From the IMG/VR virus record IMGVR_UViG_3300031867_000069: DNA of 57,325 nucleotides; one strand, written 5' to 3'. Shown here one piece after another: positions 30,004 through 33,886 of this stretch. Every line of letters begins with the position of its first letter. Positions within the stretch are counted from its first letter, which is position 1. A program made the translations under genes and the position numbers. This stretch comes from a virus. The notes under the pieces were generated by a model that searched no databases, was not told the origin of the DNA, and saw nothing but the letters and a program-made list of their open reading frames with translations.

Positions 30004-30041
30004 AAGGTGTCTGAAACATGGCACCTTATTCTTTTATTTTT
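30004..30041 (+). terminator. Rho-independent terminator
   Basis: 8-bp stem (aaggtgtc / ggcacctt), then attcttttattttt. Confidence 0.65.
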
Positions 30042-30056
30042 GAAAGGAGAATTTAC

Positions 30057-30932
30057 ATGAGCAAAAAATATGAATTCACGGGAGAAACTAAAACGATGCA
30101 GGATGGCAATATTTTGCATAGAATCATAGCTTGTAAAACATTCGGAAATGTAAAATCCGGAGAACTCGGCGGATGGATCGAAAACGAAAATAATTTGAGT
30201 CATGAAGGAAATGCTTGGGTTTCTGAAAATGCTAGTGTTTATGGAAATGCTAAGGTTTCTGGAAATGCTGAGATTTCTGGAGATGCTAGAGTTTATGGTG
30301 ATGCTGAGATTTTTGGAGATGCTGAGATTTCTGGAGATTCTTGGGTTTCTGGAAATGCTAAGGTTTCTGGAAATGCTGAGATTTCTGGTGATTCTTGGGT
30401 TTTTGGAAATGCTGAGATTTCTGGAAATGCTGAGATTTCTGGAAATGCTAGTGTTTATGGAGATTCTGGGGTTTATGGTGATGCTAAGATTTCTGGAGAT
30501 GCTAAGATTTCTGGAGATGCTGAGATTTCTGGTGATTCTTGGGTTTATGGTGATGCTAGGGTTTATGGTTATTCTTGGGTTTATGGAAATGCTAGGGTTT
30601 ATGGTGATGCTAGGGTTTCTGGAAATGCTATAGTTTATGGAGATGCTAGAGTTTTTGGAAACGCTTGGGTTTTTGGAAATGCTGAGATTTCTGGAAATGC
30701 TGAGATTTCTGGAGATGCTGATTATGCAACAATCAAAGGATTTGGAACTAACTTTAGAAATACTACTTTCTTTAAGTGTTCCGACGGATCTATAAAGGTC
30801 AATTGCGGTTGTTTCTATGGAACTTTAAAAGAGTTTAGAAAACAGGTAAATAAAACTAGATCTGGAAAAATCAGAAAAGAATATCTTATGATTGCAGATC
30901 TAATGGAAATGCATTTTTCAAATAAAACTTAG
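30057..30932 (+). CDS. Hexapeptide-repeat (left-handed beta-helix type) protein of unknown function (291 aa)
   Basis: SD AAAGGAGAA lies before ATG 30057. There are 28 consecutive G-[ND]-[AS]-x-[VI]-x hexads. The C-terminal domain contains a GCFYGTLKEF motif. Confidence 0.75.
   Translation: MSKKYEFTGETKTMQDGNILHRIIACKTFGNVKSGELGGWIENENNLSHEGNAWVSENASVYGNAKVSGNAEISGDARVYGDAEIFGDAEISGDSWVSGNAKVSGNAEISGDSWVFGNAEISGNAEISGNASVYGDSGVYGDAKISGDAKISGDAEISGDSWVYGDARVYGYSWVYGNARVYGDARVSGNAIVYGDARVFGNAWVFGNAEISGNAEISGDADYATIKGFGTNFRNTTFFKCSDGSIKVNCGCFYGTLKEFRKQVNKTRSGKIRKEYLMIADLMEMHFSNKT
30207..30719 (+). repeat. 18-bp tandem repeat array (about 28.5 units, consensus ggaaatgctgagatttct)
   Basis: Read directly from the sequence. 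It encodes the hexapeptide repeats. Confidence 0.9.
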
Positions 30933-31138: not shown

Positions 31139-31303
31139 ATGGCTAATAAACCTAAAAAAGCTTGCCGAGGATGCTTATATTGCACTCCATATTACGGAAA
31201 TAAGAATAAGTTCGGAAAGAGAACCATTTCTAAATATTGGTGTATTAAGAAAAGTACTACGTGTTCTGATCCGAAAGAGTGTTCATTTAGAAAGGAGAAA
31301 TAA
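31139..31303 (+). CDS. Small Cys-rich basic protein (54 aa), below the ORF-track cutoff
   Basis: SD AAAGGAGAA. Contains CRGCLYC...C....TTC....C. Confidence 0.5.
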   Translation: MANKPKKACRGCLYCTPYYGNKNKFGKRTISKYWCIKKSTTCSDPKECSFRKEK

Positions 31304-31305
31304 AA

Positions 31306-31561
31306 ATGATTAAAATTGAAAACGCGGAAGTTATGGGTTGGGAGGCTGCTATTCGTGGAATGCGAAATCCAATGAATTCTTGGGATAGGAGTGATAGCGA
31401 ACGAAAATACGAATCATGGCACGATATGTCTGGAGGAGAGTTTACCATTGGCCCAAATGATCATGACTTGATGATGCGGTTGGCAGCGGGTGGACCGGTT
31501 CATGCGAAGTATCGTAGGATGATTACGGTATATGTTGATATTACTGCTCCTCTATATTGGT
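31306..31561 (+). CDS. ThyX-like (flavin-dependent thymidylate synthase fold) protein, exon 1
   Basis: The N-terminal 85 aa end in ...VDITAPLYW, which corresponds to ThyX ...[10 protein letters not shown]. The apparent TAG stop is the first bases of the intron. The exon ends on U31561. Confidence 0.7.
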
Positions 31562-31607
31562 AGTTCTTTCTGCCAATGAAACACTTTTCCTAGTTATCGC
31601 TAGGGGT

Positions 31608-31636
31608 CACGCGTAAATAACATGCTCCTTTACGAA
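31608..31636 (+). promoter_or_regulatory. Promoter-like motif CACGCG-N17-TACGAA (inside the intron)
   Basis: A variant copy. Its CACGC can pair with GCGUG at 32471-75, closing the insertion. Confidence 0.45.
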
Positions 31637-31650
31637 AGGAGGAATTAAGT

Positions 31651-31839
31651 ATGATATTTAGAAGAAACAAACTTACAGTTGACGAAATTGAAGCATATGT
31701 ACAAAATCATTTAGATCTATATAATAGCCAAATAAAAATATTAGAAGATGATAATTATACATGTGAATGTTTAAAAGCACAAAGAGTAACTTGTAAAGAG
31801 ATACTTAGATTCATTAAAGTTAGAAAGGCTCAGCAATAA
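31651..31839 (+). CDS. Intron-nested small protein (62 aa)
   Basis: SD AAAGGAGG. The stop lies inside the terminator stem. Confidence 0.55.
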   Translation: MIFRRNKLTVDEIEAYVQNHLDLYNSQIKILEDDNYTCECLKAQRVTCKEILRFIKVRKAQQ

Positions 31840-31859
31840 CGCTGGGTCTTTTCTCTTTT
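31827..31859 (+). terminator. Rho-independent terminator (copy 1 of a 35-nt exact repeat)
   Basis: Stem ggctcagc / gctgggtc, then ttttctctttt. 31826-31860 is identical to 32428-32462. Confidence 0.7.
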
Positions 31860-31879
31860 ATGAAAGGAAGGTGATATTT

Positions 31880-32149
31880 ATGACCAATACCGAAAAACAA
31901 ATAGAAAATATGGGGTATGAAATTCGTGTTAGTGATATGCTTTGCAATTATGTTGTTTATGAGAACAAAAAAGAAGATCAAGAAATAATCTTGGAATGGG
32001 ATGATGAAGATCAATATTGTATGTTGTTTTCACAAACAATATCGAGAGAAAAGGATTGGCTCGGACATACACGACAAATGCCTCAAGCATTAACTATTCG
32101 TGAATTGGAAATATTTACAGCTAGACTTAAAGAATTGAGAGAGGCCTAA
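31880..32149 (+). CDS. Intron-nested small protein (89 aa)
   Basis: TATGAAAGGAAGG lies before ATG 31880. Confidence 0.55.
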   Translation: MTNTEKQIENMGYEIRVSDMLCNYVVYENKKEDQEIILEWDDEDQYCMLFSQTISREKDWLGHTRQMPQALTIRELEIFTARLKELREA

Positions 32150-32180
32150 TTAATGGTCTCTTTCTCTTTTTTATTTTTTT
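32140..32180 (+). terminator. Rho-independent terminator
   Basis: Stem agaggcc / ggtctct, then a long T-run. Confidence 0.7.
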
Positions 32181-32191
32181 GAAATCTAAAA

Positions 32192-32220
32192 TTCGCGAAA
32201 TACGCACTTCCTTTTATGAA
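32192..32220 (+). promoter_or_regulatory. Promoter-like motif TTCGCG-N17-TATGAA (inside the intron)
   Basis: ttcgcgaaatacgcacttccttttatgaa, abutting SD AGGAG. Confidence 0.55.
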
Positions 32221-32234
32221 AGGAGTGAATTATT

Positions 32235-32402
32235 ATGTTACAATCACACGAAGTTAAAAATTATTTACATTCATTAAATGCGGTAAAATATCATTATGAT
32301 ACTGATGAATTTAACAGACGAGTTAATTTCGTTTGTAAAATATGTAGTTATCATGGATATTTGTCGTATGGAAAGATAAGAGAAATATTCGAAAATTGTT
32401 AA
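32235..32402 (+). CDS. Intron-nested small protein (55 aa), below the ORF-track cutoff
   Basis: Product MLQSHEVKNYLHSLNAVKYHYDTDEFNRRVNFVCKICSYHGYLSYGKIREIFENC. Confidence 0.5.
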   Translation: MLQSHEVKNYLHSLNAVKYHYDTDEFNRRVNFVCKICSYHGYLSYGKIREIFENC

Positions 32403-32428
32403 ACATTGTAATGGATTATAGAGCGAGA

Positions 32429-32461
32429 GGCTCAGCAATAACGCTGGGTCTTTTCTCTTTT
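32429..32461 (+). terminator. Rho-independent terminator (copy 2 of the 35-nt repeat)
   Basis: Identical to 31827-31859. Confidence 0.7.
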
Positions 32462-32528
32462 ATATTTAAAGCGTGGCTAACGGGGAACCACCCATTGGAA
32501 TCCCGTGGGAAACATTTCAAAAATATAA

Positions 32529-32557
32529 TACGCGAAAAATACATAGCGTATTATGAG
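32529..32557 (+). promoter_or_regulatory. Promoter-like motif TACGCG-N17-TATGAG with no ORF downstream
   Basis: It lies between the P4-P6 and P7 halves of the intron core. No SD or credible ORF follows in the next ~300 nt. Confidence 0.4.
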
Positions 32558-32834
32558 AAATAGACTTGTGAAGACAAATGACACATGAATTTGCGGTTTG
32601 TATATTTTATACAAATTGAGAGAAGTGAGAAACCTGATATCGGATCATAGGAAAATGAGACTATGTGAACATAGCAAGTTCTATTCTTTTTTATTTTTGA
32701 AACGAACCTGTAGAGGCTATCCCCTATGCCTTCTGGGCGGGGGAGTAGGGCTACTATTGATACGTAGCTGGATTTTAGGAAACGAAGTCCATGAAAACCG
32801 AAATGGTGTCCTATTGTTTTGAATTTGTGTGTGA

Positions 32835-33421
32835 AAAAAATTATGGTGGACTTATATTTATAATAACGAACATGATTCGTATATCTATAAAGGTCCTTAT
32901 AGTATTGATTTGATGTATCAAAAACGTGATAAATTCGATGGGAATATTTATGAGCATAATTTAAGAACAAAGAAAGATATAAAGGCTGCTAGTGAAGATA
33001 CCTTAATAGAGGAGTTTGATACCTTTTATAAGAAAAACAAAAATGATATAGATAATCTTTTACGTCCTGGTTTTGATAATTTAATGAATACTCCGTATGC
33101 TAAATTAACAAAGGACGGCGTTACATATAAAGATGTGGCTGGAAATTCAAGAAATCTGCAAAACAATATAAGTATGCGGAAAAATTTGTAAATAGATTAA
33201 AGGAACAGAAATATTCCGCTATCGAAGATATGAATAATAAAGGTTCGTATTATAATTCTATAAGTCCTGTTGTCATTCTTGATGGCAAACAATATTTATC
33301 AGAAACCGGAATATCTTCTTTACCAGCAAGTCATGTTTATGCATACGGTAATTACGTTATGAATGTATTAGGTTACAAAAACGAGCAAGCCGGTTATCGT
33401 AATATCATAAAACAATTTTAA
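32835..33421 (+). pseudogene. Frame-disrupted intronic ORF (possible decayed homing-endonuclease gene)
   Basis: Two overlapping frames (32835/32913..33191 and 33131..33421) sit between the P7 5' and 3' strands. There is no SD. I see no LAGLIDADG, GIY-YIG or HNH motif. Confidence 0.3.
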
Positions 33422-33461
33422 ATAAACACACAAAACAATAGTAAAAGATAGTCCATTAATG

Positions 33462-33886
33462 GGAAAGAATTTGATACTTATAAGGTTGGTACTGTTGCAA
33501 ACTCATGCTCAACGATGCACAAGATTCATGAGAAGGAGTTTATGATGGAGGATTTTAGTTGTGAAAAGCTTATAAACTCAGCATGCATGGAAATTCAAGA
33601 ACAGCATATTCGTATAAGCCCGATACAAGCATTGGCAACGACCATTGAGTGCTTGAATTCCTATCGGGATTTATATTTGCAAACCAAAGATAAAAAATAT
33701 TGGTGGCAGATGATCCAGCTTCTTCCAAGCTCATATAACCAGAAGAGAACTGTAATGCTGAATTACGAGGTTCTTGCTGGCATTTATATTTCTAGGAAGG
33801 ACCATAAGCTCGACGAATGGAAGGAGTTCTGTAAGTGGATAGAAAGCCTTCCATATTCTGAGTTAATTACTGGAAAGGAGAACTAA
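33462..33886 (+). CDS. ThyX-like protein, exon 2
   Basis: The frame is open from 33452. (W)KEFDTYKVGTVANSCSTMH... continues the ThyX alignment, and ...LLPSSYNQKRTVMLNYEVLAGIYISRKDHKLDEW corresponds to ThyX [34 protein letters not shown]. Confidence 0.7.

Follow-up and report, generated by a model that had tools for sequence, protein, structure and literature searches.

A probable group I intron with a T4 td-like core and small-gene cargo in a phage gene of predicted ThyX fold

Group I introns in the DNA-metabolism genes of phages are textbook knowledge. Those of subgroup IA, the td, SPO1 and Twort type, have two extra helices, P7.1 and P7.2, between P7 and the 3' strand of P3 (P3'), and the SPO1-like (HMU) introns in the DNA polymerase genes of Bacillus phages carry I-HmuI. 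Here we describe an insertion in a 57,325-nucleotide (nt) viral DNA, IMG/VR record IMGVR_UViG_3300031867_000069, the whole stretch of which we call the window. The insertion occupies positions 31562 to 33461 and is very probably a mobile group I intron with an IA-type core resembling that of the T4 td intron. It lies within a phage gene of family PHROG 6721, whose product is predicted to have a ThyX fold.

The T4 td intron (group IA2, in the ThyA gene, with I-TevI) is one of the closest known systems. A first-pass annotation of the window, made from the sequence alone, had proposed the intron by comparison with strings of the td intron. These strings proved genuine: a 152-nt td segment with GACTATCCCTTTGGGGAGTAGGG and GAGATATAGTC is 100% identical to T4, and the 5' core of the T4 locus (L001; L-numbers denote loci in our comparison) reads ctaaacggggaacc...aatcccgtg. 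The counterparts it had listed in the window are also present, namely CUAACGGGGAACC...AAUCCCGUG at 32477-32507, GGCUAUCCCC...GGGGAGUAGGG at 32715-32750 and AAGAUAGUCC at 33445-54. They are nearly identical to the td strings cUAAaCGGGGAACC...AAUCCCGUG, GaCUAUCCC..GGGGAGUAGGG and AGAUAuAGUC. The two introns share the P7 helix (GACUAU/AUAGUC in td), P7.1 and P7.2 between P7 and P3', and the position of P3' (cgaaacGATAGAc in td). Both have a U·G pair at the 5' splice site, a terminal G and cargo in a terminal loop, and both target a conserved site in a nucleotide-metabolism-type fold. The presence of P7.1 and P7.2 places the window's intron in subgroup IA. The periphery is different. In td, P2 lies between P1 and P3, P9, P9.1 and P9.2 are present and P6 holds one ORF (open reading frame), whereas the window's intron has neither P2 nor P9 and has cargo in three loops. 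It also has two hairpins from P3 to J3/4 and an extra hairpin after P7.2, so that the label 'td-like' holds for the core and not for the periphery. The host proteins, ThyA and a ThyX-like protein, have unrelated folds.

In the window, the host gene is divided over two ORFs. The first (31306-31563) ends in ...DITAPLYW followed by TAG, as had been read before (...APLYW-TAG), and the frame of the second (33515-33886) is indeed open back to 33452, preceded by a TAG at 33449-51. Joining 31561 to 33462 reproduced the proposed tat tgg t|gg aaa gaa and a continuous ORF of 226 amino acids (aa). The three parts are as follows.

31306 to 31561, plus strand: exon 1 of the host gene, 85 codons and the first base, U, of a split TGG codon; positions 943-1202 of L005 align to window 31302-31561.
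31562 to 33461, plus strand: the probable group I intron, which starts at A31562, ends with the terminal G33461 and is 1900 nt long; its boundaries come from an empty-site allele and its structure from covariation.
33462 to 33886, plus strand: exon 2, from the GG of the split TGG to the stop codon; L005 1203-1561 aligns to window 33462-33820.

L005 is the contig with the closest intron-less allele. Its alignment to the window consists of two blocks that break exactly at 31561|33462, which confirms the boundaries to the base and shows that the insertion is exactly 31562-33461, without duplicated or ambiguous bases. An identical 1900-nt element is found in two other independent assemblies (at least three in all) and is therefore not an assembly artefact. 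The ligated exon junction reads ...GCTCCTCTATATTGGT|GGAAAGAATTTGATACTTATAAGG..., the peptide across it in the spliced product would be APLYWWKEFDTYK, and all 23 haplotypes have TGG as the split codon.

The joined protein matched PHROG 6721 (phrog_6721) in one stretch covering residues 1-223 (E=4e-77). Single-piece homologues were found by tblastn in Clostridium, Enterocloster, Fusobacterium and other phages, and a large protein collection contained more than 8000 uninterrupted homologues, with identities of up to 87% at 100% coverage. When 17 of the uninterrupted homologues were aligned, the junction fell inside the longest conserved block, APLYWWKEFDTYKVGTVANSCSTMHKI, with W85 and W86 invariant. 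The insertion site thus lies in the most conserved block of the family (APLYW|WKEFDTYKVG). Joined ORFs are intact in every carrier with enough flank, with lengths of 220-356 aa in very diverged hosts.

The segment between the 3' splice site and the first ATG of the second ORF provides a test of how exon 2 is read. Its 17 codons (33464-33514) contain no in-frame start codon. Compared with the window, the 23 haplotypes show 144 synonymous to 17 non-synonymous changes in the exon-1 frame, and ratios of 17:139 and 0:156 in the other two frames. This pattern is evidence that exon 2 is probably under selection as read in the frame set by exon 1.

For the RNA structure, we used the group I features in PMC3984707 as a checklist, comprising the P1/P10 substrate domain, the P4-P6 scaffold, P3-P7-P8 and a terminal G. 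The first-pass annotation had named P1, P7 and the terminal guanosine, and all three are as it proposed. They were compared with copies of the intron at the same site in other phages. The elements of the window's copy are listed below.

31556-61 / 31572-77, plus strand: P1, AUUGGU paired with GCCAAU, with U31561·G31572 at the 5' splice site and loop 31562-71; invariant in 21 of 21 sequences; recovered by the minimum-free-energy (MFE) fold and by RNAalifold.
31566-71 / 33462-67, plus strand: P10, CUUUCU paired with GGAAAG of exon 2; 6 pairs, 99.2% of cells paired across 21 sequences.
31581-85 / 32805-09, plus strand: P3, ACACU paired with GGUGU; the 5' strand directly follows P1, which is unusual, and the 3' strand lies one base upstream of P8.
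31589 to 31604, plus strand: hairpin X, provisionally 'P3.1', CCUAG-UUAUCG-CUAGG; four of five pairs change on both sides.
31606-12 / 32471-77, plus strand: hairpin Y, provisionally 'P3.2', GUCACGC paired with GCGUGGC; 4 pairs with both-side changes.
32480-84 / 32502-06, plus strand: P4, ACGGG paired with CCCGU, without variation and the same as in td; makes up the P and Q elements together with P5.
32488-90 / 32496-98, plus strand: P5, CCA paired with UGG; J4/5 is AA and J5/4 is AAU; covaries in L056.
32507-09 / 32707-09, plus strand: P6, GGG paired with CCU; from RNAalifold.
32513-25 / 32692-704, plus strand: P6a, inverted repeat I14; 12 of 13 pairs with both-side changes; closes a conserved non-coding module of ~167 nt.
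32715-20 / 33448-53, plus strand: P7, GGCUAU (R element) paired with AUAGUC; presumed guanosine-binding helix, the td helix with one G·U.
32721 to 32743, plus strand: P7.1, CCCCU-AU-GCC...GGC-GGGGG; L083 has CCCUU/AAGGG; same position as P7.1 of td.
32750 to 32768, plus strand: hairpin B (P7.2), GCUAC-UAUUGAUAC-GUAGC; A-U becomes G-C in L083 and L086.
32770 to 32790, plus strand: hairpin C, GGAUUUU-AGGAAAC-GAAGUCC; an extra helix that td does not have.
32811-33 / 33427-41, plus strand: P8, CUAUUGUUUUG..UGUGUG paired with CACACAAAACAAUAG; inverted repeat I3; closes a cargo loop of ~590 nt.
33442-47, plus strand: J8/7, UAAAAG; together with the P7 3' strand AUAGUC (33448-53), the S element; invariant in 27 copies.
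33454-61, plus strand: tail of 8 nt, CAUUAAUG, ending in G33461; invariant in 27 copies.

The terminal G33461 is thus constant throughout the 27 copies, and its position is fixed independently by the empty-site allele. The 6 + 6 nt of the P1 and P10 halves form a 12-nt guide sequence complementary to the ligated junction. By simple arithmetic, a 12-nt complementarity with wobble allowed has a chance of (6/16)^12, or ~8e-6, per register.

We scored the hand-built structure on an alignment (A4) of 21 distinct same-site copies from which the three variable loops had been trimmed. The proposed pairs were formed in 98.3% of cells, compared with 41-47% when the partners were slid by 1-3 columns. Pairs that change on both sides numbered 34, against 5-12 in the slid versions and 14.3±1.7 in shuffled ones (none of 500 shuffles reached 34), and the covariation score was 0.233 versus 0.02-0.06. 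Compensatory changes were found in every helix other than P1, P4 and P10, including the pseudoknot of P3 and P7. P7 changes to GGCCAU/AUGGUC in L072 and to GGUCAU/AUGACC in the element of Lak-A1, and its 5' strand is GACUAU, exactly as in td, in 6 of the 21 copies. P3 has four independent variants: ACACU/GGUGU in most copies, AUGCU/GGCAU in L056 (a double compensatory change, AUGC/GCAU), AAUGGUU/AGCCAUU in Enterococcus phage EF1 and AUAUCU/AGAUAU in L016-B. Hairpin X also occurs as CCUUC/GAAGG, CCUGC/GCAGG and CUCAC/GUGAG. Hairpin C occurs as GGGUUUU/GAAGCCC in most copies, UGAUUUU/GAAGUCA in EF1 and GUAUUUU/GAAGUAC in Lak-A1. P7.1 shows both-side and one-side changes that keep the pairing, and hairpin B is a signature motif that recurs in the EF1 and Lak-A1 elements.

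P8 has both-side changes in five of its seven scored pairs and is a 7-bp hairpin, CUCACUA/UAGUGAG, in compact copies. The cargo loop of hairpin Y is 858 nt long in the window; in the compact copies L072, L013 and L066 this loop has 14-16 nt. Of two inverted repeats detected by a tool, I3 corresponds to the P8 stem and I14 to the P6a stem, each at the base of a large insert. The energy-only (MFE) fold of the whole 447-nt copy L072 recovered P1, Y, P4, P5, P6, P7, P7.1, B, C and P8, and RNAalifold on A4 gave the same nested helices plus the short P6. Two other pairings were rejected. P3 as CGUGG/CCAUG is broken by covariation in hairpin Y, and a nested RNAalifold pairing of the P3' and P7' strands is broken in L056 and has no compensatory support.

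These data bear directly on whether the insert is an intron at all. A block of small genes, such as a moron island or a transposon, might have been inserted, leaving the halves of the host gene as separate proteins or unexpressed. The insert does contain complete small-gene modules with their own leaders and terminators, and Rfam found no intron in it. However, it has no target-site duplication, terminal inverted repeats or transposase, and an ORF-less version of 447 nt occupies the same site. Thirteen conserved helices with covariation span the whole insert and both exon ends, 33462-33514 evolves as coding sequence in the exon-1 frame in spite of having no start codon, and some copies carry intron-type homing endonucleases. 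We therefore regard a gene-block insertion as extremely improbable; it is effectively refuted by the covariation and the compact copies. A transposon was rejected for the same want of target duplication, terminal repeats and transposase. We also rejected a group II intron (no domain V-like element, no reverse transcriptase, wrong boundaries) and an intein, because the insert begins with an in-frame stop.

The probable intron belongs to a larger group of elements. A megablast search of the region against GenBank phages gave no match. Sensitive blastn showed that the core is ~80% identical over 100 nt to elements in Lak megaphages and Enterococcus phage EF1, and that the 5' core is 85% identical to the faecal phage MT835485. 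A scan of IMG/VR for two core motifs yielded 68 and 48 loci. Among these relatives, at least 27 other phage contigs have the element at the codon that is interrupted in the window; the 27 complete copies range from 447 nt (L072) to 2277 nt (L058), with the length variation restricted to three points. This intron family is widespread in gut phages.

The EF1 element, which is unannotated, lies between two DNA polymerase pieces. It shares with the window's intron the 5' core CUAACGGGGAA...CAAUCCCGUGGGAA, ~80% of the 3' domain, in which both hairpin B and hairpin C are present, and the order P1-P3-X-Y; it differs in having a P9 hairpin, a single ORF in P6 and another host gene. The element of Prevotella phage Lak-A1 (L003, ~1460-2640) splits an NrdD-like ORF. 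Its 3' domain is ~81% identical to that of the window and its 5' half is unrelated, a mosaic which suggests that intron halves have been exchanged between lineages. The first NrdD-like ORF of Lak-A1 is itself a candidate for a protein-level insertion. In MT835485 (L004, MT835485.1, reverse complement), an isolated intron 5' core at 2088-2681 comprises the Y 3' strand, P4-P5-P4' and the P6a 5' strand. P4 is weakened there to G·U pairs, a homologue of cargo cluster C7 lies upstream and one of the window's 55-aa cargo ORF downstream. A search of 42.7 kb of MT835485 revealed no 3' domain, and the ThyX-fold gene of this phage is uninterrupted. This piece looks like an intron fragment that moved elsewhere together with cargo modules.

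The distribution of the introns points to mobility. Over 171 pairs, the mean nucleotide identity of the intron cores is 88.8% versus 63.7% for the host genes. The closest host allele of the window (87% protein identity) has no intron, and the closest relatives of the window's intron, 95-96% identical, are in genes ~64% identical. The 31-nt ligated junction, CTCTATATTGGTGGAAAGAATTTGATACTTA, exists as DNA in intron-less alleles whose proteins are only 44-60% identical; one such allele and an intron-plus contig come from a single JGI sample. Three metagenome matches share this 31-mer in diverged genes. A search of viral contigs found no empty-site allele with the window's own haplotype, and no pair showing recent gain or loss was found. 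A homing endonuclease is recognisable in only 4 of the 27 copies: in L013 and L061 the P8 loop encodes an I-HmuI-like HNH enzyme (NUMOD4, HNH_3, I-HmuI NUMOD-like), and in L056 and L083 the P6 loop gives HNH or 'intron-encoded nuclease' matches (phrog_374/9084/7140). The I-HmuI-like enzyme is a likeness to the SPO1-like introns, to whose RNA the family may also be linked.

The window's copy contains other cargo, which we list by loop.

31651 to 31839, plus strand: cargo ORF 1, 62 aa, no family matches; followed by a terminator-like hairpin at 31823-52.
31880 to 32149, plus strand: cargo ORF 2, 89 aa, a conserved small protein; followed by a terminator-like hairpin at 32137-64.
32235 to 32402, plus strand: cargo ORF 3, 55 aa; followed by a terminator-like hairpin at 32425-54.
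32910 to 33421, plus strand: P8-loop cargo, two ORFs that differ in frame, 32910-33191 (93 aa) and 33230-33421 (63 aa).

The first three ORFs, of 62, 89 and 55 aa, lie in the Y loop, and Pfam, PHROG and NCBIfam gave no known function for any of them. Each has a ...UAUGAAAGGAG-type leader before it. The 89-aa protein has 67 homologous clusters; homologues 74-76% identical occur in L015, L022, L041 and L058, ~4 kb outside the intron, with a like leader and terminator. The 55-aa ORF has a 58%-identical homologue in MT835485, adjoining the intron-core fragment, and the 49-nt terminator region that follows it is a direct repeat of 31813-61. The P8-loop ORFs gave only weak PHROG matches (phrog_7502, E=0.003) and have no similarity to the cargo of other copies; neither is recognisable as an endonuclease.

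The P6a loop (32526-32691) has no credible ORF and folds significantly (z=-3.9). A module with which it shares 94-96% identity lies at the 3' end of the larger P6 loops of L015, L025, L027 and L058; the loop could represent a small RNA, a promoter or the remnant of a cassette. A sigma-70-like match was seen inside it at 32578-32606. Across the 27 copies, the loops contain 36 ORF clusters, and three families change loop from one copy to another. A 293-aa DUF7211 protein, encoded in the P8 loop of L015 and L058 (intron positions 996-1877) and also found in L023, L024 and L069, is the largest cargo. Its C-terminal part resembles 'head morphogenesis' PHROG 7625, which makes it structural-protein-like rather than an endonuclease.

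The leader motif (T)ATTATGAAAGGAG occurs 11 times on the plus strand of the window, upstream of small genes, versus ~1 expected. Its positions include 13851, 14781, 15150, 17009, 17227, 26369 and 36334, as well as 31626, 31854 and 32210. These genes probably share it as a promoter or as the context of a ribosome-binding site, and it is likely to be a substrate for recombination between gene modules.

Several results weigh against a group I intron. The first concern Rfam. RF00028 (Intron_gpI), with which the first-pass annotation had proposed to check the intron, did not match the window at the gathering threshold or 31450-33550 at E<=10; the local scan of that region at E<=10 gave only chance-level microRNA and thermometer matches. 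The model likewise gave no match on the compact copy L072 at E<=10 or on EF1, Lak-A1 and MT835485 at E<=0.1, and at the gathering threshold none of its matches in 44 related loci overlapped the 3' domains of the clade. Our own covariance model of the family's 3' domain (R1) did not reach T4 td; every relative available for such a model had been selected for hairpin B, which td lacks. P1, P4 and P10 are invariant and give no covariation information, and the selection on the exons could partly predate recent insertions. Pfam, PHROG and NCBIfam found no homing endonuclease in the window's copy. As to structure, P2 is not present, none of the 27 same-site copies has a P9 helix after P7, where there is only CAUUAAUG, and two hairpins, X and Y, stand between P3 and J3/4. 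Finally, the three terminator-like hairpins in the Y loop are on the sense strand upstream of the catalytic core and could prevent full-length transcription.

The Rfam result has to be read beside a control. The genuine T4 td intron scored 40.3 bits against a cut-off of 50 bits, and only its 3' half was sensibly aligned. ORF-bearing IA-type phage introns can thus be missed by RF00028, which is a weak test here. A sibling intron, L016-B (1346-1637), gave a full-length match to RF00028 (29 bits, E=5.7e-5) that is below the gathering score and overlaps a 91-bit match of R1. These two matches tie the clade to the curated model, below its gathering score. L016 contains two compact ORF-less introns of the clade in one gene, ~200 nt apart (819-1136 and 1346-1637), both with a P9 hairpin and with Rfam scores of 17.3 and 29 bits. 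Canonical group I introns with Rfam scores of 60-72 bits were found in L042 (1821-2041), L021 (3667-3927), L009 (5464-5724) and L059 (7434-7694). These four loci also carry weak R1 matches at other coordinates, and such phages appear to carry many introns. R1 with its filters off found no second intron of the clade in the window.

The layout departs from the canonical order P1-(P2)-P3-J3/4-P4 and reads P1-P3-X-Y-J3/4-P4. A pair of hairpins between P3 and J3/4 is, to our knowledge, unprecedented. A literature search found no published description of the intron family or of the P3-X-Y layout, in a limited library where absence proves little. P3 would keep all four of its links, those from P1 and P7, that to P8 and that towards J3/4, and we infer that X and Y are a peripheral insertion and not a different fold.

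An RNA of this kind might not be autocatalytic alone. Without P2 and P9, the folding and splicing of a group I-type intron could depend on the ribosome or on a protein supplied by the phage or its host. P9 is missing in 27 of 27 same-site copies and present in the L016 and EF1 siblings, and the splicing of T4 introns is assisted by host factors and translation (PMC3984707). On the other hand, hairpins X, Y and C, which covary, might make the tertiary contacts that P2 and P9 would have made, and no maturase-like ORF is conserved across the copies, whose cargo is entirely variable. We consider such a dependence unlikely, though still the most serious of the alternatives.

A further alternative accepts descent from a group I intron and supposes that the 1.9-kb copy no longer splices, owing to its terminators, its heavy cargo or an A·C mismatch in P6a, and that the host gene is inactivated or decaying. 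In addition to the terminator-like hairpins before the core, this copy has no endonuclease, its P8-loop ORFs are in broken frames, and it alone has A·C at the second P6a pair. Its family-conserved core positions are nevertheless all intact, and its helix changes are either compensated (hairpin C) or in the long P6a stem. Neither exon has a frameshift or a stop, the identical element is kept in the independent assemblies described above, and copies with equal or larger cargo (up to 2277 nt) keep intact host ORFs. Like terminator-type hairpins also follow ordinary small genes of these phages, where they are presumably read through. Loss of splicing is in our view improbable, and we retain the interpretation as a mobile group I intron whose 1.9-kb copy would still splice.

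The host protein had been described as ThyX-like, a description that stands for its predicted fold and not for its sequence. We modelled P0001, the 87%-identical intact homologue, with AlphaFold (mean predicted local distance difference test score, pLDDT, 71.8). In a Foldseek search of the PDB, the top matches were all ThyX, with E-values of 9e-6 to 1e-4, template-modelling (TM) scores of 0.42-0.56, ~225-240 aligned columns and 14-16% identity; the best structure was 3ah5_A (E=9e-6, TM ~0.5). The fold match is nearly full length, and on this model the host protein has a ThyX fold. In sequence, Pfam and NCBIfam gave no match to the ThyX family (Thy1, PF02511), phmmer and hmmsearch (the latter with a 40-sequence profile) against the PDB gave no match, and hhalign with 16- and 40-sequence profiles against TM0449, confirmed as the comparison sequence, was negative or not significant (E=0.28 for the one local alignment). 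An exhaustive family profile search had only close family members among the matches listed.

It had also been proposed that the insertion lies in a nucleotide-binding motif equivalent to the ThyX RHR loop, which could not be established. The only local hhalign alignment places ...DITAPLY against ...HVKAPIF in a consistent register. When this weak register is extended, which is not statistically supported, the RHR of ThyX stands opposite the near-invariant T91-Y92-K93, and S88/R90 stand opposite C/T. RHR thus falls opposite T-Y-K in the only plausible register. PHROG 6721 comprises 4669 clusters at 50% identity. Seven long members (P0132, P0204, P0232, P0235, P0236, P0248 and P0249; 370-444 aa) match the profile in two stretches with a break at about position 130, which suggests a large insertion, a domain or an intein, at a second site in the family.

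The window as a whole comes from the genome of a tailed phage and encodes a large terminase subunit, a portal protein and a prohead protease. Upstream of the host gene, 30018-30932 encodes a 304-aa protein with YdcK beta-solenoid and bactofilin-type repeats (GNAEISGDA...). A 143-aa alternative-frame ORF with EMLRFL repeats (30202-30633) lies wholly within it and is almost certainly a by-product of the repeat periodicity.

The structure suggests how the intron would be removed. In the folded pre-mRNA, the guide sequence CUUUCUGCCAAU would pair with both exon ends as P1 and P10. An external guanosine bound in P7 would attack after U31561 in its U·G pair, G33461 would then take the place of the guanosine, and the freed 3'-OH of exon 1 would attack after G33461. 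Ligation of ...UAU UGG U to GG AAA GAA... would restore codon W86 and the 226-aa protein. The three long inserts are predicted to be terminal loops of hairpin Y, P6a and P8, outside the ribozyme core.

The HNH homing endonucleases of the relatives would explain spread into intron-less alleles, in which the target of ~31 nt is conserved. In the window's copy, small phage gene modules (leader, ORF and terminator-like hairpin), which may be expressed from within the intron, stand in the endonuclease's stead. This copy is most likely maintained through vertical inheritance or through trans-assisted homing or recombination. There are partial precedents. The T4 nrdB intron has a defunct I-TevIII and is mobilised in trans by mobE (PMC2790892), and the Streptococcus thermophilus phage lysin intron has deletion derivatives (cited in PMC8541194). 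Both are likewise without a working endonuclease and form variant series that differ in loop content. In these precedents, however, the variants arose by decay or deletion of one endonuclease gene, whereas here many unrelated small genes move between loops.

This difference raises the possibility, which we put forward tentatively, that the intron family is a vehicle for accessory genes. The Y, P6a and P8 loops would be docking sites that tolerate insertions, modules would be swapped into and between them by recombination through the common leader and terminator sequences, and homing into the conserved 31-nt site would spread the modules between otherwise diverged phages. The clade would also have a structurally distinct group I architecture, P1-P3-X-Y-J3/4 with three helices after P7 and a dispensable P9, that current covariance models do not see.

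Group I introns in phages are well known. What goes beyond this is the unusual periphery, the invisibility to Rfam, the non-endonuclease cargo in several loops and the mark that the intron sets on a motif of PHROG 6721. A whole clade of phage introns, including the same-site family, the EF1 element, the Lak nrdD-like element and dozens of IMG/VR contigs, is invisible to the Rfam model at its curated threshold, and split genes are consequently mis-annotated as two hypothetical proteins. The non-canonical layout is supported by covariation and may help to tell which parts of the periphery are exchangeable around a group I core. The intron also marks a key conserved motif in a very large and uncharacterised ThyX-fold family with thousands of clusters. 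Finally, the rotation of small non-endonuclease genes through the loops suggests that introns can ferry accessory genes between phages.

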